Assembly: GCA_045863395.1 (NCBI GenBank)
Contig: BTVJ01000070.1
Location: 1 to 37,123, forward strand
Source: Myxococcales bacterium
GTDB lineage: Bacteria > Myxococcota_A > UBA9042 > JABWCM01 > BTVJ01
Direction of reading: 5' to 3'
Length of the DNA: 37,123 nt
In this document: piece by piece, positions 6,231-31,597 of the stretch
Layout: every line of letters starts with the position of its first letter
Numbering within the stretch: the stretch's first letter is position 1
Translations under genes and position numbers: made by a program
The notes under the pieces: model-generated
Databases searched by the model: none
Told to the model about the DNA's origin: nothing
What the model saw: only the letters and a program-made list of their open reading frames with translations

Positions 6231-6250
6231 TCCCTCACCGCCCATGTCAG
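6222..6250 (-). promoter_or_regulatory. sigma70-type promoter for the fibre gene and probably the lipoprotein gene
   Basis: Minus strand CTGACA (6250-6245)-N17-TATGAT (6227-6222); each hexamer is 5/6 consensus; 45 nt above the ATG at 6177. Confidence 0.65.
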
Positions 6251-8673: not shown

Positions 8674-9300
8674 ATGGACGCTGACATGAGGAACTGCCCG
8701 TACTGCGCCGAGGAGATCCGAACCGCGGCGATCAAGTGCAAGCACTGCGGCACCATGCTCGACGGGTCCTCTGCCCCGCCGGCGCCTCGCCGGCCGCCAA
8801 CGGGGAGCCCGCGCGCGCCCGTCGATGCACAGACAGAGGTCTTCTTCGAGGGCGCGCCGAGCTGGGTCGCGTACTTCGGCGACGTGGTCATCCCCACCCT
8901 GGTACTGATCGCCGCCTCGGTCGGCCTGGCGTGGTTTGAGGAGACGCGCGTCTACGCACTCGTGCCCGTCGGCCTCTTCCTTCTCCTCGTAGCCTACTGG
9001 TATCTGCGGCTGCGCAGCGAGCGCATCTACGTGAGCGACATGCGTGTGGAGACCCAGTCGGGCATCGTGGCGCGCCACGTGGACTCGCTGGAGCTCTGGC
9101 GCGTCCATGACATCCGCTACGCCCAGACCCTGGTGGACCGACTTCTCTTCCGAAGCCGCATCACGCTCTGGTCCCAGGATCAGTCCACCCCTCAGCTCCA
9201 CCTGGTAGGCCTGCCTGGCGGCCGCGACCTCTACACGAAGCTCCGCGACGCCGTGGACAAGAGCCGGCGCCAGCGGGGCGTCCTCGGCATCATCGAATAG
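8674..9300 (+). CDS. Membrane protein with N-terminal zinc ribbon and bacterial PH (bPH_2/DUF304-type) domain, 208 aa
   Basis: CPYCAEEI..AIKCKHCG, Pro-rich linker, two hydrophobic helices, then Y.VSD.RV....GI..R....LEL.RV.DI...QTL.DRL. Confidence 0.85.
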   Translation: MDADMRNCPYCAEEIRTAAIKCKHCGTMLDGSSAPPAPRRPPTGSPRAPVDAQTEVFFEGAPSWVAYFGDVVIPTLVLIAASVGLAWFEETRVYALVPVGLFLLLVAYWYLRLRSERIYVSDMRVETQSGIVARHVDSLELWRVHDIRYAQTLVDRLLFRSRITLWSQDQSTPQLHLVGLPGGRDLYTKLRDAVDKSRRQRGVLGIIE

Positions 9301-9306
9301 CAGCGG

Positions 9307-9334
9307 TTGACAGCCCCCGATGCCTCCCTACATT
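9307..9334 (+). promoter_or_regulatory. htpG promoter (sigma70-like and/or RpoH-like)
   Basis: TTGACA (9307-9312)-N16-TACATT (9329-9334); also readable as TTGA...CCCTACAT, resembling heat-shock sigma32 promoters. No CIRCE repeat seen. Confidence 0.6.
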
Positions 9335-9369
9335 CCTGCGCCGAAGACGTCGCAGAACGGGAGGACGCC

Positions 9370-11288: not shown

Positions 11289-11332
11289 AGGTCGGTGGGC
11301 AGCGCTCGCGCCGCCCCCCCCTCACCCGACCT
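11289..11332. terminator. Imperfect hairpin between the convergent htpG and giant-gene stops
   Basis: AGGTCGG...CCGACCT outer arms enclose GGGCAGCGC/GCGCCGCCC; no U-tract. Confidence 0.3.
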
Positions 11333-14300
11333 CAGTCCAGGTAGCACTTGTAGTTGCCGAAGAAGTCCTTGCCGCACTTGCAGTTGCCGTTGTAGCAGCC
11401 GGGCTGGCCCTGGCAGAAGGTCGTGCCGGCGTTCTCGTCCGTCTGCCCGTCGCAGTCGTTGTCGAGCCCGTCGCACTGCTCGGGCTGCGGCTGCACGGAC
11501 CCGATGCACTCGGTCCAGGCCGCAAGCTCGCAGATCGAGATTCCCGTCTGACAGATTCCCTGGCCTGGGCCCTCGTTGCACTCCTTGGTGAGCGCCCCGC
11601 CGTCCGGGCCCTCGTCCGCGACGCCGTCGCAGTCGTTGTCCTCGCCGTCGCAGATCTCCGGCACGGGGACCTGCTCGTCCATGCAGGGGCCCCACACCGC
11701 GCCGGAGCAGGTGCGGGTGCCGCCGTGGCAGTTGCCGATGCCCGACGACCCGCTGCCGCCGCTGTAGCAGGGCTCGGTCAGCGCGAAGCCGTCCAGTCCC
11801 TCGTCGGTCTGTCCGTCGCAGTCGTCGTCCGCGTTGTTGCACAGCTCCGCGTAGGGCTGCTGCGCGGTGCAGTTCTTCCACTGCCCGGCGAGGCAGCTCT
11901 CGACACCCGTGCCGCAGGCCGTGGCGCACGCCTTCTGCAGCGGCGTGCCCGTGGGGCCTTCGTCGGTGACTCCGTCGCAGTCGTCGTCGATGTTGTTGCA
12001 GACCTCGGGGAGCACCGGCGGCGCCGTGCAGTTGACCCAGAGCCCAGCGGCGCACGTCTCGGTGCCCGTTCCACACGCCGTGGAGCAGGTCTTCACGAGG
12101 CCGTCGTCGACGACGCCGTTGCAGTTGTCGTCCTTGTTGTTGCAGGTCTCCGCCTTCGGGGCGATGGTCGCGGCGCTGCAGACGGCGGGCCCGGCCGGGC
12201 TGGCGCCGTTGCAGACCCAGTTGCCCCAGGCCAGGCACTCACCGACGCCCTTGGAGCACAGCCCGCCCAGCGCGTTTCCGTTGGTGTCCGGGTACCAGTC
12301 CTCATCGACGAGGCCGTCGCAGTCGTTGTCCTGACCGTCGCACACCTCTGGCTCCGGCACCACCGAGCACACGCCCCAACCGCCGCTCGCGCACTGCTGC
12401 TTGCCGCCGATGCCGCAGTCCGGGTTGCAGGCCCGCGCCGCCACCTGCTCGTCGACGTCGCCGTCGCAGTCGTCGTCGGACCCATCGCACCGCTCGCCGG
12501 AGACGACGGACAGGGCGGTGTCCAGGATCCCGACCAGGGCGGACGGGCTCGTCGCGGCGTAGAACCACGTGTCGCTCGGGCTGGTCCGCGGCTTGGGCAG
12601 CCCCCCGGCAATTGCCATGGCGTTGAGGGTGGCGACATCGCCCGACCCGTAGCCATAGCCAACGACGATGGTGTTGACGCCGGCCGCCGCGAGCTGCTCG
12701 ATGACCGCGACCCGGCTCGGGCTCTCCGTACACCCAGCGCCCCCGTCCGTGATCAGCACGATGGTGCTGTGGGCGTTGGAGTACGCCAGTGTCTGGAGCT
12801 GCGCCCCCGCTGCCGCCAGCGCCTGCGCCATGGGGTTGGAGCCGCTGGTCGGCGTCGCCCCCGCGAGGAACGTCGAGATCTGCGCCTGGGTGGCGTGGAA
12901 CGGCACGTCCAGGCCCGCCGAGGAGCTGCACGCGCCAGACGTCGGGAACACCTTGAGGCCCACGTTCATGACGGGCGCGTACACGGCGGCGGTGAGGTCG
13001 ACCGCGTCGGTCGCCCACTCCCAACGGGTCATGGCGCCGTCCGCCGTGTTCATGGACGCCGAGCGGTCGAGCACCAGCACCACGTTGTTGGACGCCGGCA
13101 CGCAGGACGGGTCGCACAGGTACGTGAAGTCGCAGGACCCGGCCGCGCAGAAGTCCTCGGTGCAGGTGTCGCCGTCCTCGCAGTCGCCCGAGGTGAAGCA
13201 GCACGCGGTGCCGACCGTGATGTCGTCCAGGTAGACACCCTCGAACTGGTTGTACGCCCCGTCGCCGCTGTCGAACTCGAAGCGCAGGGTGACTGACTGC
13301 CCACCAAAGGTCGCCGGATCCAGGTTGACGTCGATCTTCCGCCAGACGCCGCCGGTCGACCCGATGAGCGCCTCCGTGGAGTTCCAGACCTCCTGGTCGA
13401 CGCTGCCATCGACGGACCGCACCCGCACGACCAGGGCGTCGTAGTCCGTGGAGCCGGCGAACATCTCGGTCTCCATCCAGATGTGGAAGCGCAGCCGGTG
13501 CATGACGCCGCCCGCCAGGGCAAGCGCGGGAGACTCCAGGCGCGCCCGCACCCTGCCCTTGTCGTAGTTGTGGTTGATCGGGTCGCCGAAGTAGGCGGAG
13601 TGCGCAGGGGAGACAGACCGCTTCGTGTCGGCCTGCCACCCGAGCAGCGAGCCGCTCAGCTTCGTGGACGTCATCTTGCCCAGGGTCCCGGCGCTGAAGC
13701 TCTCGCTGAACACCCCGTTGGTCCAGGCCGCGGGACTCGTCAGCGGCGCGCACACCTCGCAACCCGACGACGGGTTCACGTCGCCCGGCGCCCAGCAGTC
13801 CCCGTCGATGAAGCAGTTGCCATCGATGATCGCGTGGGAGGCCACGCCGCCGGAGCAGGTGTCGGCCGTACACGACTTCCCGTCGTCGGGCACGTTGCTG
13901 TCGTCGATCACGTTCTTGCTCGTGCCGCCCTGGCAGACGAGATCCGTGCACGGGTTCCCGTCGTCTGCCGCGGGATTGGGTGCATTGGAGTCGTCCGGCG
14001 TGTGGACGCAGCCGCCCGCGGCGATGCTGCACGCATCGTCCGTACATGCCTCGCTGTCGTTGCAGGCCGCGTGGTTCGGGGTGCTCGTGCCCTCGCCGGC
14101 CACGCACACGTCGACGGTGCAGGCGATGCCATCGGTGAACGACTCGTCGGTCTGGCCATCGCAGTCGTCGTCCTGGCCGTTGCAGGTCGTGTCCTGCGCA
14201 AGCGGCGGAGACGACGGCGTGCAGGCGATCTCGCTGCCGCTCACGCACGTGGACTGGCAGGCGCAGACCCCGAGGCCGTAGGTGGTCGGGATGAACGCCT

Positions 14301-17300
14301 CGTCGGTCTGGCCATCGCAGTCGTCGTCCAGGCCGTCGCAGTCCGTGTCGTCGCCGGTCTGGGGCTTGGGCGCGCACGCGACGACGGCACCGCTGACGCA
14401 GGCCGAGGTGTTGGCGCACACCCCCGTCCCGCAGGCGACCGGCGCATAGTCCTCGTCCTTCTGACCGTCGCAGTCCTCGTCCTTGCCGTCGCAGATGGTG
14501 TCCGACGGCTTCGGGAGCACCTGCCCGACGCAGGCGCCATAGGTGCCGCCCGAGCAGGTCGCCGTGCCGCCCTTGCAGAGACCGACGTCGATGGTGCCGT
14601 TCGGCCCCGTGTAGCAGGCCTGGGTCAGCGGCACGCCCGGCGAGGCCTCGTCAGTCTCGCCGTCGCAGTCGTCGTCGGCGCCGTTGCAGGTCTCCGGGAC
14701 CGACTGGCTCTGCGACCCGCCGGGCTCCGTCGAGCACCGCGCGTTCGACGCATTGAAGCACTCCACGGTGCCGACGCCGCAGGCGCCCACTCCGTCACAC
14801 GGCCCGCCGATGGGCTGGCCCTGGTAGACGAAGCCCTCGTCCGTCATGCCGTTGCAGGAGTTGTCGAGGCCGTCGCACAGCTCGATCTGGCTCTGGTCGT
14901 TCGTGCCGTCCGGGTTGGTGGAGCAGGTCGCCGCCGTCTTGCCCGGGTTGCAGTGGACGGTGCCCATGCCGCACTCGCCGATGCCGTCGCAGGCCTGGCC
15001 GAGCGCCTTCTGCTGGCCGTTCTCTTGCGTGTAGACGAAGCCCTCGTCCGTCGCCGCGTCGCAGTCGTTGTCCTTGCCGTCGCAGATCTCGCTGACCGCC
15101 TGGCTCGCCGAGCCGTTCGGGTCCGTAGAGCACGTGGCCGCCGCGAGAGACGCGCACTCCACGACGCCGATGCCGCACTCGCCGACGCCGTCGCAGCTCT
15201 GGCCCTTGGCGCGGACGGTGCCGTTCTGCTGCGTGTAGGTGAAGTCCTCGTCGGTCAGGCCATCGCAGTCGTCATCCTTGCCGTTGCACTTCTCGGCGAC
15301 GGCCTGGCTTGCTGTCCCGTCCGGGTTCGTGGAGCAGGTGGCGCTCGTCGTCGTCTTGCACTGGACGACGCCCGCACCACACTCACCCGTGCCATCGCAA
15401 GCGCTGCCGACCACGATGCCGCTCCAGGCGAAGTCCTCGTCGGTCAGCCCGTCGCAGTCGTCATCTACCCCATTGCAGGTCTCTGCGATGTTGGTGACCG
15501 TCTCGTTCACGCACTCCAGGACCACGAGGCTCGGCGCGCACGTGAACGTGCCGTTCTTGCACTGATCGGTGTCCGCCCCGTCGCAGGCCGCGCCCTTGTT
15601 GGCGAAGGTCTCGTCCGTCTGGCCGTCGCAGTCGTCGTCCACGCCGTTGCAGGCCTCGCCCTGCCCGAAGAGCGCCGCGATCTTCACGGGCGTGAGCACC
15701 TTCCGGTAGACGGCCACCTCGTCGAGGTTGCCCTTCCATACGTTGATGCCTGCTCCCGCGGACCCGATGTGCATCGGCTGGGTGGTCGTCCCGAGGGCCC
15801 CGAAGGGCGCGGTCACCGAGATCTTCTGCACGCCGTCGAGGTAGCCCACGACGGTGCCGGTCGTGCCGGACGTGCTCTTGAAGGTCGCCGCCACGTGGGC
15901 CCAGGCGCCCTGCGGGACGGTGCCCACCTTCCACTGGCTGTTGTTGAGCTTGATGAACAGCTCGCCCGTGGCGCCGACCACGAACATGGTCCAGGCGGTC
16001 CCATTGCCCTTGTCCACGATGTGCTGGTACGTGTGGCCGTTGCCGCCCCACTTGACCCACGCGGCCAACGTCAGGTCCGTGGTCGCGTCGAGCGTCGCGT
16101 GGTGCGGGACCGCGCCGTAGGCGGTCGTCCCGTTGAGCACGATGGCCTTGCCGTAGCCCGTCGGGCCTGCGGTGGTCCAGGTGGCGGCCGTCAAGGCGGC
16201 CACGCCGACGGATCCCGACGCGCTCGCCGCCGTCGCCCCGCTGCCCTCCTCGAATCGGTAGAAGGCGACCGGCCCGTCGGTGACGCACTCCACGCCCGTG
16301 CCATTGGCCTTGCAGGTGAACAGGCCGTCTTTGCACTGGTCGTCGTCGCCCCCGTCGCAGGCCTGGCCCTTGGTCGGGAAGTCCTCGTCGACGGAGCCGT
16401 CGCAGTCGTCGTCCTGGCCGTTGCACGTCTCGGCGATGTTGGTCACCGACTCGTTGACGCACTCCGTCCCGCTGCCGTTCGACTTGCACGTGAACGACCC
16501 GTTCTTGCACTGGTCCGCGTCGGACCCGTCGCACGGGTCGCCCAGCTCCGCCCACGTCTCGTCCGTGAGGCCGTCGCAGTCGTCGTCGGCGCCGTTGCAG
16601 GCCTCGACGATGTTGCTGACCGTCTCGTTGACGCACTCCAGGTTGCTGCCGTCGGCCTTGCACGTGAAGGTGCCGTTCTTGCACTGGTCCGTGTCCGCCC
16701 CGTCGCACGCCTGCCCCTTGGTGGGCCAGTTCTCGTCGGTGAGGCCGTCGCAGTCGTCGTCGAGGCCGTTGCACTTCTCCGTGATGTTGGTCAGCGTCTC
16801 GTTGACGCACTCGACGCCGGTCCCGGCCACCGTGCAGGTGTACGTGCCGTTCTTGCAGAGGTCGGTGTCCGCTCCGTCGCAGGACTGCCCCTTCAGCGGG
16901 AAGTCCTCGTCGGTCTGGCCGTCGCAGTCGTCGTCCAGGGCGTTGCACTTCTCGGCGATGTTGGCCGGCGTCTCGGGCCCGCACACCGTCGCCCACTGGG
17001 AGGTCGTGCAGATCATCACGCCGTTCTTGCACTGGTCAGAGTCCGGCCCGTCGCAGGACTGCGCCAGGTCCGCAAACGCCTCGTCCGTGAGGCCGTCGCA
17101 GTCGTTGTCCGCGCCGTCACACAGGTCCTCATTGAGCTGTAGCGCCGGGATGCCGCTGCTGGCACGGGCGGCAATCTCCGCCGCCGACAGGGCCCGGTCG
17201 TAGATGGCGACCAGGTCGACCTTGCCGTCGAGCCAGCGGTTGGGCTCGCCGGTCCGCCCGATGGTCACGGGCGCCGTGCTCGTCGGCATGGGGAACACAC

Positions 17301-23300: not shown

Positions 23301-26300
23301 CCGTCGCCCCCTGACCAAGCAGCCACCGCCAGTTGTTGACGCCTGCCGTGGTGTTGCAGTCGGTCCCCGCGTTTGGCTTGATCCACATGGACACCGAGAC
23401 CGAGTCGATGGGCGCCAGCGACGCCGCATAGGGGATCTGGATGTAGTCGTCCACGCCGTCGAGCGTCGCCGCCTTGCCGTAGACCCCCTCGCCCCACGCC
23501 GACCCGTTCACGCGCGTGCCGTTGTTGGCGTTGCCAGCCCAGTCGGCCGCCGTGGTCCCCGTGCCCTCGTCCAGCTTCAGATAGACCGACGCGCCGTCGT
23601 CGGCGCAGACCACGCTCGTGCCGCTGCACACCTTGATCCCGTCCGTGCACGCGTCCGCGTCGGGTCCGTCGCAGGCCTGACCGATCTGCGGGTCAGCCGG
23701 GCCGCCGCAGGTGCCCGCCGTACACGTGTCCGGCGACGTGCAGGCGCTCCCGTCGTTGCAGGCGGTGCCATTCGGTTTGTCGGACCACGCGGTCTTGCTC
23801 GTGGCGCTCCAGCAGCGCTGGCACTGGTTGGCGCCGTTGGTCGCGTTGTCGTTGTAGCAGCTCGTTCCGATGAGGCAGGTGCCGTTGTTGACCGTGTGGC
23901 TGCATGAGTAGGACGACGCTCCGGTGGAGACGCACGCGTCCGTGGTGCAGGTGTAGGCGTCCGCGCAGTTCGGGGCAGCGCCCGCCGTGCAGGACCCGGT
24001 CTGGCAGGTGTCGTTGACCGTGCAGCCGCTGCCATCCGCGTCACAGGAGGTCCCGTTGGCCTTCAAAGCATCCGCCGGGCACGAGACGCCACTTCCGGAA
24101 CAGTTCTCCGCCACGTCGCACTGGGTCGCGGCTGGACGACACACCGTCGAGGTCGGGGCATAGGCGTCCACCGGGCAGGTGTTCGCCGATCCGTTGCAGG
24201 TCTCCACCAAGTCGCAGACCCCAGCGGAGGCTCGGCACACGGTCCCGGAAGGACGTACGACGTCTGTCGGGCACAATGCCGCGCTTCCCGTACACTTCTC
24301 TTCCACGTCGCAGCCCCCGGCCACAGCCGGCCTGCAGACCGTGGTGTTCGCGACGAAGACGTCGGTCGGGCACGTGACTGCCGTCCCGTTGCAGGTCTCC
24401 GCCACGTCGCAGACCCCGGCTGATGCGCGGCACACGCTCCCACTCGCCACCTTCGCGTCAGCCGGGCAGGCCGCCGTGCTGCCGGTGCACTTCTCCTCGA
24501 TGTCGCAGACTCCCCCCGAAGGGCGACACACCGTGCTGTTTGCCAGGAACGCGTCCGCGGGGCACGTGACCGCCGTCCCGTTGCACGTCTCTGCCACATC
24601 GCAGACTCCAGCAGATGCTCGGCACACGCTCCCGCTTGCCACCTTCGCGTCCACCGGGCAGGCCGCCGCCGACCCGGTGCACTTCTCTTCGATGTCACAC
24701 ACGCCGCCCGACGGGCGGCACACGGTCGTGTTTGCCAGGAAGGCGTCCGCGGGGCACGTGACCGCCGTGCCGTTGCACGTCTCCGCCACGTCGCAGACAC
24801 CGGCCGACGCGCGACACACGCTCCCGTTCGCCACCTTCGCGTCAGCGGGGCAGGCTGCCGTCGTGCCCGTACACTTCTCCTCTATGTCGCAGACTCCGCC
24901 AGATGGACGACACACCGTCGTGTTCGCCACGAACGCGTCGGCCGGACACGTCACCGCGGTCCCGTTGCAGGTCTCCGCCACGTCGCAGACCCCGGCTGAT
25001 GCCCGGCACACGCTCCCATTCGCCACCTTCGCGTCCGCGGGACAGGCCGCCGTCGTGCCGCTGCACTTCTCTTCGATGTCACACACACCGCCGGACGGGC
25101 GGCACGTGACCGTGTTGGCCACGAATGCGTCGGTCGGGCAGGTGTTCGCCGTCCCGTTGCAGGTCTCTGCGACGTCGCAGACGCCCGCCGAGGCGCGGCA
25201 CACCGTCCCGTTCGCGGACTTGGCATCCACCGGACACGCAGCGGCGCTCCCCGTACACTTCTCCTCAGGGTCGCAGACCCCGCCGGACGGGCGACAGACC
25301 AGGGTGTTGGCCTGGAAGGCGTCCGTCGGGCAGGTGTTCGCGGTGCCGTTGCAGGTCTCCGCCACGTCGCACGGTCCCGCGGACGGCCTGCAGACCGTCC
25401 CGCTGGCCGACTTCAGGTCAGCGGGGCACGCGGCAGCGCTCCCCGTACACTTCTCCTCCGGGTCGCAGACTCCTCCAGAGTTGCGGCACACCGTCGCGCT
25501 CGACGCGAACGCGTTCGTCGGGCAAGTGTTCGCCACCCCGTTGCAGGTCTCCGCAACGTCACAGGCACCCGCCGATGCCCTGCACACCGTACCGTTCGCC
25601 TGTACGACGTCCGCCGGGCACGCCGCGCTGGTGCCGGTGCATTTCTCCTCCACGTCGCAGCCTCCGGCCACCGCCGCGCGGCACACGACCGTGTTGGCCA
25701 GGAAGGTGTCCGCGGGGCACGCCACTGCCGTCCCATTGCAGGTCTCGGCCACGTCGCATGCGCCGGCGGAGGCCCGGCACACGGTCCCCGCCGCCGACTT
25801 GGCGTCCGCCGGGCACTGCGCCGTCGTCCCATTGCAGGTCTCGGCCGGATCGCACCCACCGGCGGAGGCCCGGCAGACGGTCCCCGCCGCCTTGGCGACA
25901 CCCGTACACACGCCGCCCTGGCACGAATCGTTGGTGCAGGCGTTGCCATCGTCGCAGGCCGTTCCGTTGGGCTTGAACGTGACGCTGCACGTCGTGCCGA
26001 TGCCGTTGGCGTTGCAGACCTTGACGCCGGTGTTGGCGCAGGCTCCCGTGCCCACGGTGCATGCGACCCCCTTGTCCCACCCCTCGTCGGTGACCCCGTC
26101 GCAGTCGTTGTCGACGTTGTCGCAGGCCTCGAAGTCCTTGAACTTGGCGTCCACGCTGCTGTTCATCACGGACTGGATCTCGGCCTGTGTCAGCGCATAG
26201 CCGTAGACGGCAGCATCGTCCATCTGCCCGAGCCAGTACGCGTCGTGCCCCTGGCCAAAGCGCGACACGGCGTTCGGGGCCGCGATTGCCCAGTTCACGC

Positions 26301-29300
26301 CCGACCGGGACGCCACCAGGCTCCCATTCATATAGACGCGCATGAAGTCGCCGGCCTGGTCCCACGTGGCGGCGAGGTGCACCCACGTGCCCGATACGAG
26401 ATACGCGCCCGGCGCGAAGGTCAGGTCGTTGCCGCAGCACCCCGCGTTCGGCACGATGCGGAAGTAGAAGATGTTGCTCGTCCACTTGAACAGCGAGATC
26501 CACCCCGGGTTGTTGACTCCGTTCTGCGTCTGGAACACGCCATAGGCCGTCCCGTTGGTCCCGGCGAATCCCGGGCGGAGCCACACAGACACGGTCCCAG
26601 ACGTAGGCTTGATGCCCGTACTCGGGAACTGCGTATAGCCGACCCCACCGTCGAAGGTCAGGGCCTGCCCGCCGAACTTCGCCGTGGTCGTCCGCGCGAC
26701 GCTCCCCGTAAGCGTGCCATTGTTGCCGTTACCTGCGAAGTCGTAAGCGATGGTCCCGTTACCCTCGTCGAAGGGGAAGTACGTGATCGGGCCCTGGTTT
26801 GCACAACTGCCCGTACCTCCAGAGCACATCACCACGCCGTCGTCGGTACACAGGTCCACGTCCTCCGTCGAGTCGCAGAGGGTCGTCCCTTGGACCGCGC
26901 AGGCCCCCCCGTAGAGGCACTGGCCCGCGATGAACGGGTTGGAGCAGGAGTAGGTGTTGGTGCCCGTCGAGGTGCACACGTTGTTGGTGCAGCTATAGGC
27001 GTCGGCGCATGCCTGCGCCGCGCCCGCGGTGCAGGTCCCCGACTGGCAGGAGTCGTTGGTCGTGCAGCCGTTGTTGTCGGCGTTGCAGAGCGTCCCATTG
27101 GTCTTGTTGGTCCACGCCGTCTTGCTCGTAGCGGACACGCACGCCTGGCACTGATTCGATGGGTTGACCGCGCCCTCAGCGTAGCACACTCCCGAGATGG
27201 CGCACCCGGTCGTGACCGTGAAGGTGCACGTGCCGTTGCCGTTGCACGTGTCCGCGGTGCAGGTGAGTCCGTCGTTGCACGTGTACGGCGTACCCACACA
27301 CGAGGAGCTCGGCCCCCCCGTACACCGGTCCGGGTAGGTGCAGAGGCCGCCATCGTCGCACGCCGTCCCGCTCACCTTCCCATCCGTGACACTGCACACC
27401 GTCGTGAACCCTGGCGCCAGGCAGACCTTGGTGCCAGCGACCGCACACTGGCCGACGCCCGCAGAGCAGGCAGTCCCCTTGTCGAATCCCTCGTCGATGC
27501 CGCCGGTGCAGTTGTTGTCCACCCCGTCGCAGATCTCCAGGTCCTTGTACTTGGCCTCGACGCTGCTGTTCATCAGGGTCTGGATCTCGGCCTGGGTGAG
27601 GGCATAGGAGTAGATCCCTACGTCGTCGATGCGGCCCCTCATCCAGGCGTCGTGGCCCACGCCGACCCGGGACAAGGCGGCGGTGACGGGGATGTTCCAG
27701 TTGATCCCCGAAGTCTTCGAGGCGACGAGCGTCCCGTTGGCGTAGACGCGAATGGCATTGGAGGTCTGATCCCACGTCGCCGCGAGATGGACCCAGGTCC
27801 CGCTGACCAGATAGCCCGACGGCGCGAAGGTCACGTCGTTGACGCAGCAGTCTCCCGTCGCCGAGATCCGGAAGTAGAAGATGTTGCCCGTCCACTTGAA
27901 CATGCTGATCCAGCCAGCGTTGTTGACCCCGCTGTTGGTCTGGAACATGCCATACGCCGTCGCGTCCCCGCCGTTGAAGTCGGGTCGGACCCACATGGCG
28001 AGAGACCCCCGGCGCGTGTCGATCCCGCCGCTCGAAAACTCCACGTAATCCGACGCACCGTCGAAGTAGAGCGCCTGCCCTCCGTACTTGGCCGTCGTCG
28101 TCCACGCCGTATTTCCGACCAGGGTCCCGTTCTTTCCGTTCCCCGAGAAGTCGCGGGTCAGCGTCCCATTCCCCTCGTCGAACGGGAAGTAGGTCGTCGG
28201 CCCTCGGTCCTCGCACTTCGTCGACCCATTGGCCAGATTGCACACGATGACGCCGTCGTCCGAACACAGGTCGGGGTCGGGCCCGTCGCACGCCGCCCCC
28301 AGGTTGAACCCTTCGTCCGTCAATCCATCGCAGTCGTTGTCGACGAGATCGCAGATCTCGGGTACGTTCGCCGGGCTCTCGTTGACGCACTCCACCCCCG
28401 TCCCGTCCGCCTTGCACGTGAAGGTCCCGTAGGCGCACAGATCCGCGTCCGACCCGTCACAAGCCTGACCCTTTGTCGGAAAGTCCTCGTCGGTGAACCC
28501 GTCGCAGTCGTTGTCCTTGCCGTCGCAGATCTCCCACTTCGACGCGGTGACCCGGACGCGCTCCAGCGTGTACGGGTCCCCCGACCGGGGATTGTAGACG
28601 TACCCGTCCGGCATGTAGGTCATCGAGAGTGAGTTGGTCGTGGACCCGTTGGAGGCGTGGCCGTAGAACGCCCCGAAGGTCGTCCCACCGGACCCCGTGC
28701 CCACGCGCCGCAGGATATCGTCACCGGGATACGTCGCCCAGCGCTTCACGTAAAGGTAGGTGCCGTCCGACGCCACGACGCCCGCTCCCGCAATGGACCC
28801 ATTGGTCGCGGACGCCTCCCAGTTCGAGGTGGTCGCCGATGGTGCCGTCGGTGCCCACGTGGCCCCATGAGCCCACCGCGCCACGTTGGACGCATAGAGC
28901 GAACCCATGAAGACCTTGTCGAGCACCCAGTCCCACTGCCCATTGATCATGGAGACTGGGCTCCCCTGGGGGACCTGGCCCACATTGGCCACCAGGGTTC
29001 CGTTCGACACTACGATTCGATCGATGCGACCGATGCCTCCCGTCCACTCGATTGGGTAGAGGTACCCTGTGCCGGTGTGGCGTCCACCCGAGTAGGGTGC
29101 GTCCACGACGGCCCCGTCGGCATAGAACGACACCGTCCCACTGTCGCGTTGGGCCACCTGCGCGAAGCCGTTGCGCGGGTCGAACTGGCGATACCGGTAG
29201 CCGTTGTAGGCCGCCCCCCTGCCATACGCCAGGTTGTAGAGATAGCGACCGTCGGAGGTGATCAACTGGTGGCCGCCAACCACATTGCCCGTCGACCTCT

Positions 29301-31566
29301 CCAACAGACCTGCTGGCACCGTGACCGTGGTCATGACGCCATAGTCGCTGACATTCGGGACGCAGTAGTACTGGCCTCCGGAGCACATGTACTTGCCCGC
29401 GCCGCAGTCACCCAGCATCCCCGTGGAGCAGGTGCCGTACGACGTGCCGTTGGACTTGGCAGTCCACGTCGTCGTCGACGTGGCCGTCGCGCACTGCTGG
29501 CAGTTGTTCGACGGATTGGAAGTGCCGTTCGTGTAGCAGACGTTCCCGATGTCGCAGTAGCCAGCCTGAAGGGCATAGTTGCACCCGCCCGCGCCGTTGC
29601 AGGAGTCCGTCGTGCAGGCCTTCCCGTCGTTGCACGAATAACCCGTCCCGGCGCAGACCCCGGAGGAGTTGCACAGGTCCGAGTAGGTGCAGGCGTTTCC
29701 ATCGGTGCAGGCCACCCCGGTCCGTGGGCTCCAGGCCGTCGTGCTCGTCCCCGTGATGCACGCCTGGCACGAGTTGGACGGATTGACGGCGCCGTTTGCG
29801 TAACACACCCCCGCAATCAGGCAGTTGCCCCCGATCAGCGTGTTGGTGCAGCCGCCGGAGCCATTGCAGGCGTCCGATGTGCAGGTCAGGTTGTCGTTGC
29901 ACGAGTACGGGGTGCCGACGCAGCTCTTGTTGACGCAGGTGTCGGTCTTGGTGCACGCATTTCCGTCGTTGCACGCAATGGAGTTGGCCACGTTGGAGCA
30001 GACTCCACCTGAGCAGGAGTCGTTGGTGCAGACGTTGTTGTCGTTGCAGTTCATGGGGGTGCCGGACCAGCAGCTCCCCCCACTGCAGTAGTCGTTCACC
30101 GTGCAGGCGTTTCCGTCGTTGCACGCCGTCGTCAGGTTCGAGTAGACACACGCGCCGTTCGCCGTGTTGCAGTACTCGCTCGTGCAGACGTTGTTGTCGT
30201 TGCAGTTCTTGGGGTTCGTCCCGTAACACCAGCCGCCCGAGCAGTAGTCGGTCAGCGTACAGGCGTTTCCATCGGTGCACGCCGCGGAGTTGGCGCTGTA
30301 CTGGCACCCGATCCCCGAGTGACACCAGTCATCGGTGCAGACGTTCCCGTCATTGCACGTGATCCCCTGATAAACGCACTGATTGCCCCAGCAATAGTTG
30401 TTCGTGCAGGCATTGTAATCGTCGCACTGCCAGTCGTAGTAGCACTGCACATAGCAGTAGCCGCACTGCTGGCAGGCGTCGTAGCAGCAGTCTCCGTAGC
30501 TCACGCAGGCAGAGTCGCAGTAGCAGCCGGCGTAGGAGTTGTACCCGCCACACTTGCCCGCGCATGAGCTGGGGTCCCCCCCACCGCAGTGTCCACACCA
30601 GTAACACGAGTCGTAGCAGCAATCACCGGCGATGACACAGTAAGAGTCGCACCAGCAGCCATAGGGGGAGTAGGTGCCGCAATAGCCGTAGCAGGAGTCG
30701 ACGGGCTCGCAGGTGTTGCGGTGATCGCACTCTCCCATGACGCAGGCATCGACGGTGCAGTCGTCGTGATCGTCGCAGTCTGCCTTCACGGAGCACGCCT
30801 CGACTACCTCGAAGGTGGGGTCCAGGTAGACGGGCGCCACCCTCTCGACCCCCGTGACCCACGAACCGTCGAACCGGGTCTCCACCTCCAGCTCGGTTCC
30901 GTTCCACTTCACCCGATAAGTACCCGGGCTCAGGGACGGCCCCCCTTCGGTTTGCGAGTCCCACGCGACAGGCTCGCGGAGCCGGAAGCGCACGATCCCG
31001 TCCTCATCCAAGAACTCCACGAGCCGCCCCTCGACCCAGTCGGCGGTCACCTCCACCCCATCGGCCACCACCCGGGTGATGCCCGTCAGGGCCAGGCGCT
31101 CCTCCAAAACCACGGACTCCGCGCCCCAGAGATCGCCGTCGTCCAGCAGATCGAGCCGGACGAGCTGCTTCAGGGCCGCCGCCTCCACCTCATAGGAGAG
31201 CTGGTACCGAACCGGGTCCGGCTGAGCGTAGTCGAGGGTCCGTCCCCCGCTGACGCGCTGCGCGTGGCTGAGGCGCACCGGCTCCCTCATGGCGCCATCG
31301 AAGCGAAGAACGGGCTCATCCACCTGCAGGACGCCGTGGCCCCCCGCCGTCGCCAGGGCTGGCGCTCCAGCCTCTTCCGGCGCCGGGATGACCACGACGA
31401 AGTGATCGAGGTTCACCTCCCAGCGCTCGGCAGCCGAGCGGACCGGTCCTGTGGCCTCTGCCTCCGACGCAGACTGCGCCCTGGCCGTGGCTGCCCAGAA
31501 GGCGGCGAGGCTCAGCGCGGCAATCACCGAACGTCGCGCCCGCTTGGCGCTGGCCAGAGAAAGCAT
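11332..31566 (-). CDS. Giant secreted multidomain Cys-rich adhesin/matrix protein, ~6744 aa (6752 from the GTG at 31590)
   Basis: Uninterrupted 20.2-kb ORF with coherent domains throughout. ATG 31566 has GGAG 6 nt upstream. Signal peptide ..RARRSVIAALSLAAFWAATARA|Q; no lipobox and no C-terminal TM or sorting motif. Confidence 0.93.
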   Translation of the reverse strand: MLSLASAKRARRSVIAALSLAAFWAATARAQSASEAEATGPVRSAAERWEVNLDHFVVVIPAPEEAGAPALATAGGHGVLQVDEPVLRFDGAMREPVRLSHAQRVSGGRTLDYAQPDPVRYQLSYEVEAAALKQLVRLDLLDDGDLWGAESVVLEERLALTGITRVVADGVEVTADWVEGRLVEFLDEDGIVRFRLREPVAWDSQTEGGPSLSPGTYRVKWNGTELEVETRFDGSWVTGVERVAPVYLDPTFEVVEACSVKADCDDHDDCTVDACVMGECDHRNTCEPVDSCYGYCGTYSPYGCWCDSYCVIAGDCCYDSCYWCGHCGGGDPSSCAGKCGGYNSYAGCYCDSACVSYGDCCYDACQQCGYCYVQCYYDWQCDDYNACTNNYCWGNQCVYQGITCNDGNVCTDDWCHSGIGCQYSANSAACTDGNACTLTDYCSGGWCYGTNPKNCNDNNVCTSEYCNTANGACVYSNLTTACNDGNACTVNDYCSGGSCWSGTPMNCNDNNVCTNDSCSGGVCSNVANSIACNDGNACTKTDTCVNKSCVGTPYSCNDNLTCTSDACNGSGGCTNTLIGGNCLIAGVCYANGAVNPSNSCQACITGTSTTAWSPRTGVACTDGNACTYSDLCNSSGVCAGTGYSCNDGKACTTDSCNGAGGCNYALQAGYCDIGNVCYTNGTSNPSNNCQQCATATSTTTWTAKSNGTSYGTCSTGMLGDCGAGKYMCSGGQYYCVPNVSDYGVMTTVTVPAGLLERSTGNVVGGHQLITSDGRYLYNLAYGRGAAYNGYRYRQFDPRNGFAQVAQRDSGTVSFYADGAVVDAPYSGGRHTGTGYLYPIEWTGGIGRIDRIVVSNGTLVANVGQVPQGSPVSMINGQWDWVLDKVFMGSLYASNVARWAHGATWAPTAPSATTSNWEASATNGSIAGAGVVASDGTYLYVKRWATYPGDDILRRVGTGSGGTTFGAFYGHASNGSTTNSLSMTYMPDGYVYNPRSGDPYTLERVRVTASKWEICDGKDNDCDGFTDEDFPTKGQACDGSDADLCAYGTFTCKADGTGVECVNESPANVPEICDLVDNDCDGLTDEGFNLGAACDGPDPDLCSDDGVIVCNLANGSTKCEDRGPTTYFPFDEGNGTLTRDFSGNGKNGTLVGNTAWTTTAKYGGQALYFDGASDYVEFSSGGIDTRRGSLAMWVRPDFNGGDATAYGMFQTNSGVNNAGWISMFKWTGNIFYFRISATGDCCVNDVTFAPSGYLVSGTWVHLAATWDQTSNAIRVYANGTLVASKTSGINWNIPVTAALSRVGVGHDAWMRGRIDDVGIYSYALTQAEIQTLMNSSVEAKYKDLEICDGVDNNCTGGIDEGFDKGTACSAGVGQCAVAGTKVCLAPGFTTVCSVTDGKVSGTACDDGGLCTYPDRCTGGPSSSCVGTPYTCNDGLTCTADTCNGNGTCTFTVTTGCAISGVCYAEGAVNPSNQCQACVSATSKTAWTNKTNGTLCNADNNGCTTNDSCQSGTCTAGAAQACADAYSCTNNVCTSTGTNTYSCSNPFIAGQCLYGGACAVQGTTLCDSTEDVDLCTDDGVVMCSGGTGSCANQGPITYFPFDEGNGTIAYDFAGNGNNGTLTGSVARTTTAKFGGQALTFDGGVGYTQFPSTGIKPTSGTVSVWLRPGFAGTNGTAYGVFQTQNGVNNPGWISLFKWTSNIFYFRIVPNAGCCGNDLTFAPGAYLVSGTWVHLAATWDQAGDFMRVYMNGSLVASRSGVNWAIAAPNAVSRFGQGHDAYWLGQMDDAAVYGYALTQAEIQSVMNSSVDAKFKDFEACDNVDNDCDGVTDEGWDKGVACTVGTGACANTGVKVCNANGIGTTCSVTFKPNGTACDDGNACTNDSCQGGVCTGVAKAAGTVCRASAGGCDPAETCNGTTAQCPADAKSAAGTVCRASAGACDVAETCNGTAVACPADTFLANTVVCRAAVAGGCDVEEKCTGTSAACPADVVQANGTVCRASAGACDVAETCNGVANTCPTNAFASSATVCRNSGGVCDPEEKCTGSAAACPADLKSASGTVCRPSAGPCDVAETCNGTANTCPTDAFQANTLVCRPSGGVCDPEEKCTGSAAACPVDAKSANGTVCRASAGVCDVAETCNGTANTCPTDAFVANTVTCRPSGGVCDIEEKCSGTTAACPADAKVANGSVCRASAGVCDVAETCNGTAVTCPADAFVANTTVCRPSGGVCDIEEKCTGTTAACPADAKVANGSVCRASAGVCDVAETCNGTAVTCPADAFLANTTVCRPSGGVCDIEEKCTGSAAACPVDAKVASGSVCRASAGVCDVAETCNGTAVTCPADAFLANSTVCRPSGGVCDIEEKCTGSTAACPADAKVASGSVCRASAGVCDVAETCNGTAVTCPTDVFVANTTVCRPAVAGGCDVEEKCTGSAALCPTDVVRPSGTVCRASAGVCDLVETCNGSANTCPVDAYAPTSTVCRPAATQCDVAENCSGSGVSCPADALKANGTSCDADGSGCTVNDTCQTGSCTAGAAPNCADAYTCTTDACVSTGASSYSCSHTVNNGTCLIGTSCYNDNATNGANQCQRCWSATSKTAWSDKPNGTACNDGSACTSPDTCTAGTCGGPADPQIGQACDGPDADACTDGIKVCSGTSVVCADDGASVYLKLDEGTGTTAADWAGNANNGTRVNGSAWGEGVYGKAATLDGVDDYIQIPYAASLAPIDSVSVSMWIKPNAGTDCNTTAGVNNWRWLLGQGATATTFNLIYEENQSVTWTVNLQSGGTQRLFSGTNSVPESVWSHMVFTYSGATGKLRTYRNGVLLLESTVPTGVLTTSTNPVRIGNWSNTVACPTGSGSFGGQIDEVAIYNRELSAADAVTLFTGLVPGQLANSERCNGIDDDCDGLTDEGYSNIGVACDTTADADLCSDMVRACTVDELSVVCPDGPLGAWTFPENGGALAKDSGGGGFDLSLMNGTAWAAGKQGTALSFDGVDDYAWHPGWAKFAGFSQQSISVWIRPTASTGDQHIISSSGHNDGNGCCWRWRMWRSADRLIRFALWDGDNSDIVSSVVAPDNAWTHVVVTFKVGGVDRIYVNGVPSGTVNTITSNSAFGYLHLGAYYWNGTAQGLFKGQIDEVSVFTQELTRDQVAALYSKGRVPPEQINFEYCDGLDNDCKNGADDGHVFGPCDGPDSDLCLNGQLGCTTNLLTTVCGAESPTNIVELCNGADDDCDGLTDELWPTLGQTCDGPDSDQCKNGLVVCATTTTVTCGTESPANITEKCNNIDDDCDGQTDEDFPLKGQTCDGSDSDQCKNGTYTCTTNGAGVECVNESVTNITEKCNGIDDDCDGSTDEDFATLGQSCDGPDSDQCKNGVLVCNGAQTGVTCGPESPANIVEICNGLDDDCDAQTDEGFNLGASCDSADPDSCSEGVIVCKPDASGAMCAGEPVVYLKLDEGTGATAFDSSSYGNHAAFNGATWAAGQSGGAAQFAGAQWLEIANGTSNKVTGPGITMMAWVYWSGVTGSNIIVNKESTYEAGVNNGTFQCAVATSGGSWFWSGTAAVPANTWTHVACTHGPDNQIRTYVGGVLKTTQANTGNGTIVTNNNVVQVGRRVAGSFFNGRLDEVAIFDHALTGARIAQIFSSGLPASKNYEYCDGVDNDCNGQTDELFATKGQSCDGSDADLCKNGTFTCATSQIIVECVNESVTNIVDKCNGVDDDCDGSTDEDFPTKGQACDGSDSDQCKNGTFTCTANGATVECVNETVTNIAEVCNGADDDCDGATDEGFDVGAACTMGVGTCEAAATKVCKADGTGTVCQGNGKPAGAACDDSNACTKTDVCSGGPSSSCAGVPYTCNDNLACTTDSCNGDGTCTFAINAGSCSIGGVCYADGAQNPANECQVCAAATTNTAWSNKLNGTACNKDSNGCTFRDSCQAGTCVAGAVPSCSDGISCTSDVCTSTGANTYTCSNPPVAGQCVIGAITKVDASAFTGASGSCTATTGSAPLGLTCTGGGCTSGCSTASRFDYAMTTVAGRNYDVVAKVADYLHNCTNKIKVGLYKDGVLVSMWDGAGTNDWSYPKWSFTATAASTTVSIKLENDACCSCSSVCSPTCVPLAGDINLYVDTLTLVDTSVGPCWANNVVNPANQCQTCSTASSQTAWTNKTNGTACDADGSGCTVGDSCQSGSCAAGPAPDCGDGFGCTTDVCNTTGATTYSCSSTIDAGKCLIAGVCYANGDTDPGNQCKQCTAATSQVAFSNKSNGSACNDGSACTAPDTCTAGVCAGPDIPSIGQACDGADADLCTEGVVLCKLDKSGTVCSDGAGLVFRFEEGSGTSAIDTSGNGRNGSIQGTGNGTTSYGPGKNGAFGINFAFSPSFPGGTTVTRVRVPPAGLTSWKMTFAAWVYPDVDGSRYIVSRTSTNGNTGLEISAYGAIDFAGGLISGGSSTHVMRLPLNTWSHLAVTYDGVTFRAYRDGVERLNKPVTVNEATTTWNSDIWLGQDQDSPNGGLSASQAFSGTLDDVVWYERPLSASEIVALMNTGVPAADINHELCDGLDNDCDTLTDEGWSALGNACDGDDGDLCSDGSLICAPSGLATTCRNDGPVGAWTFSEQTGTTAHDASGSGNHAALSGALWTTLGGRTAVDLDGVDDAVTAPHSASLAIAGPASLEAWVWIDALPPAGWGFAGIVAKGDLPRNYSLYLTSAGFLHFSTSGINPGGATPHCGSASTAKPPLGQWVHLAAVNRGPLTQTHEYYINGVAAGVSPLGGECVFPMPTSTAPVTIGRTGEPNRWLDGKVDLVAIYDRALSAAEIAARASSGIPALQLNEDLCDGADNDCDGLTDEAFADLAQSCDGPDSDQCKNGVMICTTSQWATVCGPETPANIAEKCNALDDDCDGQTDEDFPLKGQSCDGADTDLCKNGTYTCTVAGTGVECVNETLTNITEKCNGLDDDCDGLTDENWPTKGQACDGADTDQCKNGTFTCKADGSNLECVNETVSNIVEACNGADDDCDGLTDETWAELGDPCDGSDADQCKNGSFTCKSNGSGTECVNESVTNIAETCNGQDDDCDGSVDEDFPTKGQACDGGDDDQCKDGLFTCKANGTGVECVTDGPVAFYRFEEGSGATAASASGSVGVAALTAATWTTAGPTGYGKAIVLNGTTAYGAVPHHATLDATTDLTLAAWVKWGGNGHTYQHIVDKGNGTAWTMFVVGATGELFIKLNNSQWKVGTVPQGAWAHVAATFKSTSGTTGTVVGYLDGVQKISVTAPFGALGTTTQPMHIGSAGAGINVWKGNLDEVAVYRKVLTPVKIAALFGQGEACNGVDDDCDGQTDETFANKGAACDGADTDQCKNGTFTCAPSLVVLECVNETVTNIAETCNGVDDDCDGLTDEDFAWSGIVVGSACDGTGECGAGVVQCKTTTSATCSTNPDGTASQAVAEKCNGKDDDCDGLTDEDFTYTQQNGTVRAKGQSCDGVGECGIGVVECASLAAATCSTDPNGSASQAVSEICDGKDNDCDAATDEGFVYTQENGQQKALGQACDGIGECGMGTVHCNPGKTAATCSTNPDGTNDQSQIELCDGLDNSCNGMTDEGFVYQGQPIGGPCDGVGACGVGTVECFNASNARCSTEPGGSQSQSVPETCNGADDDCDGETDEASPGVPLTQACYTGPNGTIDVGLCKGGTATCSGGTYGACVGQVLPKPSDTICDGKDEDCDGQKDEDYAPVACGTGVCANTSACVSGAVVACAPKPQTGDDTDCDGLDDDCDGQTDEAFIPTTYGLGVCACQSTCVSGSEIACTPSSPPLAQDTTCNGQDDDCDGQTDESFTDGIACTVDVCVAGEGTSTPNHAACNDSEACTDDACSIAAGGCVHTPDDSNAPNPAADDGNPCTDLVCQGGTSKNVIDDSNVPDDGKSCTADTCSGGVASHAIIDGNCFIDGDCWAPGDVNPSSGCEVCAPLTSPAAWTNGVFSESFSAGTLGKMTSTKLSGSLLGWQADTKRSVSPAHSAYFGDPINHNYDKGRVRARLESPALALAGGVMHRLRFHIWMETEMFAGSTDYDALVVRVRSVDGSVDQEVWNSTEALIGSTGGVWRKIDVNLDPATFGGQSVTLRFEFDSGDGAYNQFEGVYLDDITVGTACCFTSGDCEDGDTCTEDFCAAGSCDFTYLCDPSCVPASNNVVLVLDRSASMNTADGAMTRWEWATDAVDLTAAVYAPVMNVGLKVFPTSGACSSSAGLDVPFHATQAQISTFLAGATPTSGSNPMAQALAAAGAQLQTLAYSNAHSTIVLITDGGAGCTESPSRVAVIEQLAAAGVNTIVVGYGYGSGDVATLNAMAIAGGLPKPRTSPSDTWFYAATSPSALVGILDTALSVVSGERCDGSDDDCDGDVDEQVAARACNPDCGIGGKQQCASGGWGVCSVVPEPEVCDGQDNDCDGLVDEDWYPDTNGNALGGLCSKGVGECLAWGNWVCNGASPAGPAVCSAATIAPKAETCNNKDDNCNGVVDDGLVKTCSTACGTGTETCAAGLWVNCTAPPVLPEVCNNIDDDCDGVTDEGPTGTPLQKACATACGTGVESCLAGQWKNCTAQQPYAELCNNADDDCDGQTDEGLDGFALTEPCYSGGSGSSGIGNCHGGTRTCSGAVWGPCMDEQVPVPEICDGEDNDCDGVADEGPDGGALTKECNEGPGQGICQTGISICELAAWTECIGSVQPQPEQCDGLDNDCDGQTDENAGTTFCQGQPGCYNGNCKCGKDFFGNYKCYLD
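12508..13089 (-). other. von Willebrand factor A domain
   Basis: VVLVLDRSASM (DxSxS), IVLITDG, GVNTIVVGY, LNAMA..GG. Confidence 0.88.
13213..13713 (-). other. MAM-like / cleaved-adhesin-type jelly-roll domain
   Basis: FSESF...W...LESP..L....L.F..W..TE....YD.L.V...W....V.L....GQ.V.LRF.F.S.......G.YLDDITV. Confidence 0.65.
19207..19659 (-). other. Carbohydrate-binding-module-like jelly-roll
   Basis: G.NY.V...V...WSFTAT...TTVSIKLEND...GDINLYVDTL resembles the F.ND....DRNLYVD motif of Ca-dependent CBMs. Confidence 0.5.
24055..25884 (-). repeat. 19 tandem 32-33-aa disintegrin-like repeats
   Basis: Unit VCR.S.G.CD..E.C.G....CP.D matches the C-terminal half of disintegrin domains (CR.....CD..E.C.G.S..CP); 96-bp period. 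Confidence 0.85.
28545..29346 (-). other. Cys-free beta-rich, probable beta-propeller domain (~265 aa)
   Basis: Recurring blade-like motifs SDGRYLY, GTGYLY, DKVFM, SDGTYLYV, PDGYVY. Confidence 0.55.
30463..30699 (-). other. Two somatomedin-B-like domains
   Basis: SCYGYCG..CWCDSYCVIAGDCCYD..C and SCAGKCG..CYCDSACVSYGDCCYD..C fit SC.G.C...C.CD..C....DCC.D...C. Confidence 0.8.
30811..31430 (-). other. Cys-free N-terminal domain ending in a PVYLDPT motif
   Basis: LKQLVRL...FRLREPVAWDS...DGSWV....R.APVYLDPTF resembles the 'W....R.YPV.IDP' N-terminal module of large exported WapA/RHS/DNRLRE-type proteins (recalled, not searched). Confidence 0.5.
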
Positions 31567-31597
31567 GTCACGCTCCGTGTTCATCTGCACGTCACCG

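Follow-up and report, generated by a model that had tools for sequence, protein, structure and literature searches.

The giant ORF described here codes for a protein whose parts are less exotic than first thought; its conserved C-terminal core, together with the rule by which domains are inserted into its MopE-type repeats, is more informative. Judging from its sequence, we read the product as a non-enzymatic, multivalent surface adhesin or tether, with a probability of roughly 0.58. The window, i.e., the whole stretch of 37,123 nucleotides that was analyzed, is an entire contig (C70) of a host genome of 8.77 Mb that is 97% complete, and host sequence is found in sludge, wastewater, and bioreactor data sets.

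Integrity of the Giant ORF

The ORF is uninterrupted on the minus strand from 11332 to 31590; it gives 6,752 aa if started at the first GTG (31590) and 6,744 aa if started at an alternative ATG (31566), with GGAG found 6 nt upstream of the latter. Residue numbers are counted from the GTG throughout. GC3 is 0.83–0.98 in every full 250-codon block, and the mature chain has a mass of 687 kDa. The first-pass annotation of this DNA had reported one 20-kb ORF with several hundred Cys, which we confirm (6,744 aa from 31566, 502 Cys): this is a real protein-coding gene with a predicted product of about 6,700 residues.

A chimera, in which unrelated genes would have been joined via repeats during assembly, could be suspected, the source being a short-read MAG, the internal repeats of the gene being up to 86% identical in DNA, and no single outside contig among those listed spanning the gene. 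We nevertheless hold such an artefact to be highly improbable, because colinear homologues exist in two other assemblies and contigs of other studies cover the gene; the chimeric assembly that the annotation had named as its possible undoing is, thus, not borne out. These full-length homologues, P0002 (6,447 aa) and P0003 (6,419 aa), share with the giant protein a common order of N-terminal domain, propeller, eight LamG, CBM-like module, MAM, VWA, and tail, at identities mostly of 50–85% and of just 27–28% in the N-terminal domain, and the giant protein nests with them in a quick-search tree. Part of the stretch is present in 20 runs from 9 studies among the 23 runs listed, one of the 20 being possibly the source of this assembly, and the contigs of four runs were aligned to 20,000 bases of it. 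Contigs of run X2 cover 29751–31649 (0 differences, extending beyond the gene start into the upstream gene), 24973–26108, and 21550–24412; they run across the SMB region and the two borders of the disintegrin array, with 0–1 differences. Outside contigs tile most of the gene, and none of those listed covers it whole; the number of repeats in the disintegrin array is backed by short contigs and only weakly checked. Six RNA-labelled runs contain part of the sequence as well, as contigs in which DNA is possibly included; two of them were among those aligned.

Module Map and Predicted Folds

Table 1. Features of the giant gene and of the gene upstream (positions in the window).
Feature	Position	Strand	Remarks
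Giant ORF	11332..31566	-	6,744 aa from ATG 31566; contigs of other studies cover it
Signal peptide, Sec/SPI type	31477..31566	-	Basic n-region, hydrophobic core, A-R-A cleavage site, no lipobox; by eye
Unnamed N-terminal domain, ends VYLDPT, residues 39-262	30805..31476	-	27-28% to P0002/P0003
Two somatomedin-B-like (SMB) units, residues 299-378	30457..30696	-	8-Cys pattern; not in P0002/P0003
CTDC-type Cys-rich repeats	29362..30441	-	More between later domains
Five-bladed beta-propeller, residues 749-1017	28540..29346	-	Between Cys a and Cys b of a MopE repeat
LamG 1	27544..28209	-	Laminin_G_3
LamG 2	26137..26799	-	63% identical to LamG 1
19 disintegrin-like half repeats, 32-33 aa, 4 Cys, no RGD	24055..25887	-	Not in P0002/P0003
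LamG 3	22912..23598	-	PDB 4qvs E 9e-10
LamG 4	22099..22752	-	Laminin_G_3
LamG 5	20644..21258	-	Laminin_G_3
DUF642/CBM-like module with Cys-rich insert	19198..19665	-	Sub-threshold DUF642, CBM60; 78% in P0002/P0003
LamG 6	17965..18645	-	Laminin_G_3
LamG 7	17134..17808	-	Laminin_G_3
LamG 8	15661..16281	-	Laminin_G_3
MAM-like/choice-of-anchor-J-like domain, conserved core	13207..13719	-	Sub-threshold HMM and fold matches
VWA domain, MIDAS DxSxS...D, conserved core	12502..13095	-	43 bits
Seven MopE-type repeats, conserved core	11428..12501	-	
EGF-like tail, five Cys, ends C-Y-L-D	11335..11427	-	Family: C-x-x-[D/E]-COOH
CTDC-repeat lipoprotein, ~1,716 aa, lipobox LAAC	31598..36748	-	Upstream; stop 31 nt before the giant gene's ATG

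All the modules named in the annotation (SMB, disintegrin, LamG, MAM-like, VWA, and CTDC) were found, the disintegrin ones as half-domain repeats; of its “LamG/pentraxin” label, the LamG half stands, with Laminin_G_3 (PF13385) above cut-off at eight stretches, the Pentaxin model being much weaker. Absent from it were 35 MopE-type repeats (38 pattern matches minus three that are not MopE), the five-bladed propeller, the DUF642/CBM-like module, the N-terminal domain, and the conserved tail. LamG 1 and LamG 2 apart (63% identity), LamG pairs are 23–31% identical. No catalytic family of Pfam or NCBIfam was matched in the giant protein. The tail has a weak EGF_integrin match (E 0.064) and no match in the PDB by sequence. 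The N-terminal domain, also without a match in the PDB, is found in 3 of 107 class genomes; it has six weak matches, three of which resemble repeat noise, and further unnamed clusters appear at low recognition. Its weak relatives include P0033 and P0031, the latter with a sub-threshold DUF7948 match at the position of the N-terminal domain followed by CBM96, and it may resemble the start of WapA-type proteins.

Piecewise models followed by structure searches, the check proposed at first pass, supported the MAM and VWA folds and brought out the propeller. The model of the last 800 aa (pLDDT 76.6, pTM 0.48) comprises MAM, VWA, and small Cys modules, and its structure search was filled by VWA and MAM matches. 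The MAM-like domain scores below the HMM cut-offs (InhA-like_MAM 19.8 for 26.9, choice-of-anchor J 29.3 for 30); its Foldseek matches, namely neuropilin-1 and meprin MAM and gingipain K1/K3 adhesin, point to a MAM-type jelly roll. The VWA fold is matched with Z 21.9 and rmsd 2.1 over 180 aligned residues, in addition to the HMM score of 43 bits. Its MIDAS has the DxSxS motif and the distal Asp. In both the giant protein and P0003, Asn takes the Thr position, which is Thr or Ser in most relatives; 15–16 of 16 members keep DxSxS/T and the distal Asp.

The propeller model (pLDDT 78, pTM 0.81) has five blades, and no Pfam family covers the domain. Its best structural match is glutaminyl cyclase 3mbr (Z 16.5, rmsd 3.6, 218 aligned, 9% identity), and glutaminyl cyclase, GH43, and olfactomedin propellers are matched at Z 13–16.5 with about 10% identity. 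Such a match between a model and known structures gives a fold and no function; a catalytic role could still be entertained because the fold is common to enzymes. This propeller also occurs in other giant proteins (G005:C1, G001:C338, P0013), as tandem copies and in circularly permuted order, P0013 being an unrelated Cys-poor protein of 4,873 aa.

The MopE Repeat as an Insertion Site

The backbone of the giant protein consists of MopE-type repeats, with 6 Cys each, and of CTDC repeats. In a plain MopE repeat, a Cys stands 9–16 residues ahead of the C-x-x-x-D-x-D-C motif. In the giant protein, it is this loop that is replaced by the propeller, the eight LamG, and the VWA (10/10 such domains). 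Each inserted domain has either no Cys of its own or two. The MAM and CBM-like modules are placed in a comparable way, within CTDC-type units. The same arrangement is seen in the family at large: 103 of the 120 LamG in 31 members are preceded by a Cys and followed by a MopE motif, and the flanks of the VWA are invariant in 16/16, with Cys before and E-x-C after. The flanking Cys pair would, thus, staple each inserted domain as a side branch, the pairing being deduced from Cys spacing (the structure model gave no bond list). An inter-chain disulfide through a spare Cys of the tail had been prompted by the odd Cys count (43) after the VWA; it was rejected, as the first repeat takes its missing Cys from immediately ahead of the VWA and the total per mature chain is even in 9 of 12 cases. 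The stapled inserts would explain the odd count after the VWA, and the even totals give no sign of inter-chain bonds.

Animal-like Modules

The two SMB-like units reach 22.9 and 13.8 bits against PF01033 (cut-off 23.1), have the eight-Cys SMB spacing, and find their best PDB match in the SMB domains of 9ftw (E 9e-6). The 19 disintegrin-like repeats cover only positions 46–75 of the 75 positions of Pfam Disintegrin. Compared with ADAM and snake-venom disintegrins, the giant protein lacks the full-length domain; it also lacks the RGD-type loop, there being no RGD anywhere in its sequence, and the metalloprotease domain, no peptidase being matched in Pfam or NCBIfam.

The annotation had framed these modules as those of animal proteins; they are present, and their exceptional status is not upheld: of 106 other class genomes, 57 have matches to the SMB pair (at E up to 1e-5) and 36 to the disintegrin array. 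Within the host genome, simple patterns counted over 13,006 GC3-filtered ORFs, shadow frames included, give 134 ORFs for CTDC, 77 for MopE, and 22 for SMB. Such counts indicate that the animal-like modules are a stock kit across the host lineage. High Cys content is also seen elsewhere in the genome, with 329 of 4,414 filtered ORFs of at least 300 aa having at least 5% Cys. In the literature, a disintegrin family has been noted in Minicystis (PMC8436480), and the legend to a figure of bacterial teneurin-like proteins mentions CTDC repeats (10.1101/2025.11.11.687626). Among the 31 family members examined, the SMB pair and the disintegrin array are confined to a single one, which is the giant protein itself; they are probably recent inserts, because they are absent from its two nearest homologues, P0002 and P0003, and they are best read as spacers or accessory inserts, not as signs of an animal-type function.

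A Conserved C-terminal Core Defines a Family

By sequence comparison, the conserved part of the protein is a C-terminal core made of MAM, VWA, seven MopE repeats, and an EGF-like tail ending in C-x-x-Asp/Glu. Of 106 other class genomes, 15 have the MAM-VWA tandem, at 18 places in all and mostly as one copy each, in a survey that scored 17 candidates per genome. The region after the VWA, of about 380–435 aa, consists of seven MopE-type repeats and the five-Cys tail, and has exactly 43 Cys in 22 of 25 rows, some of which are the same protein twice (two rows are incomplete and one has 57). Among 153 fetched proteins, the tandem is present in 29, of which 28 have the tail and one is incomplete. 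The tail pattern, searched with the last residue left free, ends in Asp or Glu in 34/34 proteins of this set, a tally that contains a few duplicate rows and leaves out a figure of 18/18 that holds by construction; 33 of these 34 also have the VWA, the other being a fragment. Full-length tail matches occur in 13 of 401 phylum genomes (15 candidates scored per genome), all of the same class and mostly genomes that were sources of the profile.

In the N-terminal arm ahead of the core, members differ widely: the LamG count runs from 0 to 15 across 31 members, and complete members measure about 1,100 to 6,750 aa, with N-termini of SPI type or of lipoproteins, most being SPI-type and unanchored (by eye). 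Wider scans for close relatives gave LamG or MopE matches only. In the host genome, the tail is absent from other genes; we, therefore, rejected it as a genome-wide sorting signal, the giant gene being its only carrier there. Five other VWA + MopE proteins end in MYXO-CTERM-like tails (by eye). A 270-aa lipoprotein (G065:C29:83536-84345; L041:7536-8345) combines one MopE repeat with the same acidic tail and has no VWA, and a second subfamily (P0077, P0084, P0085, P0088, and P0094) has a VWA, about 1,000 aa of repeats, and the same tail, which ends in CILE or CVME.

The databases name the homologues ‘VWA domain-containing’, ‘MopE-related’, or ‘hypothetical’ and assign them to Myxococcales or Myxococcota, which, together with the 18 MYXO-CTERM matches of the genome, marks the host as a Myxococcota MAG. 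The automatic names ‘MopE-related’ and ‘VWA domain-containing’ of Myxococcota MAG proteins (PF11617) are found on members of the family; each describes one motif, and neither the core, the tail, nor the insertion pattern is in any of them. In the main texts of the open literature, we found no characterized protein with this architecture and no description of the family, so that the annotation's statement that no characterized bacterial protein is built this way is borne out there and in the automatic database names.

Genomic Neighborhood

The CTDC-repeat lipoprotein gene upstream probably shares an operon with the giant gene, and its product is a candidate partner of the giant protein. Of 15 related loci examined, 12 show an upstream gene, and in 5 of these the immediate upstream neighbor is CTDC-rich; the lipoprotein has only repeats in common with these genes. 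Three of the 12 loci follow panB/panC and four (one family) follow a pilQ-aroK-aroB-TPR region, gene names at these loci being read from the sequence. In L018, L021, L033, and L036, which represent four families, the family gene adjoins selA-rpsP-rimM, a housekeeping region; going by gene order, this suggests an old, vertically kept gene.

The remainder of the window codes for a second CTDC-repeat lipoprotein (52-3591, minus strand; 1,179 aa, 28 Pfam stretches); a secreted protein of 855 aa (3610-6177, minus strand) with no Pfam match, a phage-fibre-like N-half (weak Bdello_MAT_N), and three similar C-terminal repeats, whose gene ends 18 nt before that of the lipoprotein; and, upstream of the fibre-like gene, a CotH kinase-domain lipoprotein, thus a kinase of secreted type, with a short Cys-rich linker (6247-8055, minus strand). 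A zinc-ribbon/bPH_2 membrane protein (8674-9300) and htpG (9307-11268), which converges on the giant gene, are on the plus strand. The DSBA-fold protein coded at 8001-8585 (minus strand) was considered as a periplasmic oxidase and rejected, having no signal peptide and SPYT in place of CxxC.

Two longer ORFs are found elsewhere in the host genome, C22:20355-47330 (8,992 aa) and C10:48098-69001 (6,968 aa), each preceded by a gene of 2,100–2,200 aa with a similar C-terminus; the C10 protein shares the propeller. The cohesin-/dockerin-like modules of two other giants of the genome match 9–11 ORFs, among which are neither the giant gene nor its upstream neighbor.

Export and Anchoring

The annotation had seen no RTX, autotransporter, or MYXO-CTERM signal, and motif, Pfam/NCBIfam, and MYXO-CTERM searches agree: the RTX nonapeptide motif has 0 matches in the giant protein and no RTX family is matched in Pfam or NCBIfam; no autotransporter family of the same libraries is matched and there is no C-terminal beta-barrel; and none of the 18 MYXO-CTERM matches of the genome is in the giant gene. 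Neither is there a transmembrane anchor, no hydrophobic 19-residue window of the giant protein, its end included, exceeding 1.46.

The survey of T2SS and Dsb genes suggested at first pass returned a T2SS cluster (gspC, D, E, F, G, J, K, L, and another pseudopilin) on C26, a contig other than that of the giant gene, along with four VKOR genes and 24 DsbA-like domains above threshold, spread over 13 ORFs; DsbB was not found in this 97%-complete genome, in which VKOR is present. Several of the 13 DsbA-like ORFs are triple repeats, and three are fused to VKOR. In M. xanthus, MYXO-CTERM proteins reach the surface via the T2SS, and TraA without its anchor is released through it (PMC11980579). Sec export, oxidation, and the T2SS are likely the default route of the giant protein, because of the SPI signal peptide, the T2SS cluster, the enlarged VKOR and DsbA-like set, and the TraA precedent. 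Export, which the annotation had called unexplained, is, thus, accounted for in principle by the Sec signal and the gspC-L cluster, although 687 kDa would be far above the size of known T2SS substrates.

Comparison with Known Systems

Giant T1SS adhesins, such as LapA of Pseudomonas fluorescens and the Aeromonas long adhesin, have no signal peptide, are exported by an RTX/T1SS route, and are built of Ig-like repeats with few Cys; 9no5 and 9das are VWA structures of this group. They resemble the giant protein in their very long repeat stalk and in a VWA and sugar-binding-type domains near the C-terminus, and the job is likely the same, whereas the giant protein starts with a signal peptide, lacks the RTX motif, contains 502 Cys, and carries domains within its repeats.

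Closer to the host, the M. xanthus gliding adhesins CglB and CglD are, like the giant protein, surface proteins of Myxococcota with a MIDAS-type VWA (10.1101/2023.10.19.562135; PMC9946355), and CglD has in addition a Cys-rich EGF-like stalk and acidic Ca2+-binding repeats (10.1101/2023.10.19.562135). Both, according to these sources, differ in being lipoproteins tied to the Glt machine. The giant protein exceeds CglD (1,130 aa) sixfold in length, lacks a lipobox, is built with MopE instead of thrombospondin-type repeats, and carries eight LamG and a MAM; the CglD model NF033765 does not match the giant gene, nor does it pass its cut-off anywhere in the genome. TraA and other MYXO-CTERM proteins also combine a Sec signal with Cys-rich repeats, and T2SS-dependent surface display is described for them (PMC11980579); the giant protein has no transmembrane/Arg-rich tail and carries at that position an EGF-like module ending in Asp. 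Myxococcota PilY1 proteins have a variable N-terminal adhesive part, in some cases with a VWA or long and Cys-rich, and a conserved C-terminal part (PMC13190605); in contrast, the giant protein has no C-terminal PF05567 propeller, its sole propeller being five-bladed and near the N-terminus, and its gene has for neighbors a CTDC lipoprotein gene and htpG instead of a minor pilin cluster.

Very large genes are common in Myxococcota and have been linked to adhesion; the giants of Omnitrophota and other predators are, likewise, proteins of several thousand residues with attachment-type domains and a proposed part in prey adhesion, but they adjoin their own secretion genes and carry enzyme domains (10.1101/2023.11.21.568195). 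Neither cysteine nor concanavalin is mentioned in the main text of that source. Lastly, no YD-repeat shell or toxin tip of an RHS/teneurin-like toxin was matched in the giant protein in Pfam or NCBIfam. By analogy, the giant protein most likely works like the giant stalked adhesins and CglB/CglD, while standing outside the RTX, autotransporter, MYXO-CTERM, PilY1, CglD, and RHS families.

Proposed Role and Alternatives

As an adhesin or tether, the giant protein would leave the cytoplasm through Sec as an unfolded chain, and some 250 disulfides would be oxidized in the periplasm. Each inserted domain, stapled by its flanking Cys, would hang off the backbone like a bead, and the acidic D-x-D-x-D-C-D repeats would probably be stiffened by Ca2+. 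The protein would then thread through the T2SS secretin, its small modules following one another in a thin chain. Its conserved core, whose end corresponds in position to the MYXO-CTERM of sister proteins, would keep it at the cell or matrix, with the co-encoded lipoprotein as a possible attachment point. Glycan binding by the LamG domains is what we infer at the level of their family; the divergent LamG, MAM, CBM-like, and propeller domains may, thus, bind several glycans or surfaces (prey, floc polysaccharide, substratum), and the VWA MIDAS a protein ligand. The fixed core would serve anchoring or protein binding, the variable arm reach and ligand range. The Asn at the MIDAS Thr position, the mass of 687 kDa, the location of the T2SS genes on another contig, and the presence of a CTDC-rich upstream gene at just 5/12 loci count against this reading.

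Instead of being held at the cell, the protein might be a released structural matrix protein that polymerizes, its terminal carboxylate completing a metal site (the VWA MIDAS or another) on a second molecule, which we deem unlikely; it would form fibers or a mesh, and such a bacterial counterpart of VWF or mucin networks is a similarly tentative proposal. The obligate Asp or Glu at the end of all 34 tail-pattern proteins, 33 of them with a VWA, speaks for it, as do the SPI-type, unanchored N-termini of most complete members (by eye) and the MIDAS DxSxS/T and distal Asp conserved in 15–16 of 16; but the 270-aa lipoprotein of G065:C29 has the tail without a VWA, there is no spare Cys for inter-chain bonds (even counts in 9/12 mature chains), and several members are lipoproteins, so that release is not general. 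Taken to its full extent, it would make the family an undescribed matrix system, with a stapled-repeat socket, T2SS threading of up to 690 kDa, docking of the tail into the MIDAS, and a VWF-like network, a picture that we find doubtful; the tail with its obligatory terminal carboxylate would then, under the same doubt, be a new anchoring or polymerization signal replacing MYXO-CTERM. Coupling of an adhesin to a motility machine that would export or display it, as a PilY1-like pilus tip or a CglB/CglD-like focal adhesion, is improbable. The VWA and Cys-rich stalk do resemble CglD, the gene follows the pilQ-aroK-aroB-TPR region in 4/12 loci (one family), and GltG-like genes and a further secretin are present in the host; yet the C-terminal PilY1 propeller, a minor-pilin cluster, and a match of the CglD model (in the giant gene or, over cut-off, in the genome) are all lacking, the giant gene and pilQ are on different contigs here, and the neighborhood varies between families. 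Quite improbable, too, is a coat or decoy that would protect the cell from grazers, phage, or proteases, for which length and a variable arm would outweigh specific adhesion: the arm changes quickly while the core is fixed, GC3 is 0.83–0.86 in the N-terminal and disintegrin parts for 0.94 in the core, and small disulfide modules are often inhibitors, but variable arms are typical of adhesins too, and the eight LamG are kept in order at 50–82% identity in three species, which suggests specific binding.

If the giant protein is secreted whole via the T2SS, the size range of this machine would be extended several-fold beyond known substrates, and the acidic tail would then be a new candidate sorting or assembly signal. 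In the host's habitats (sludge, wastewater, and bioreactors), flocs form under the influence of adhesion and predation. SMB, half-disintegrin, and EGF-like modules appear as routine bacterial parts in this lineage, which bears on the origin of animal extracellular domains. More generally, one uncultured class of Myxococcota has a conserved and apparently unstudied family of exported proteins, from 1,100 to 6,750 aa, that is put together by a simple building rule.
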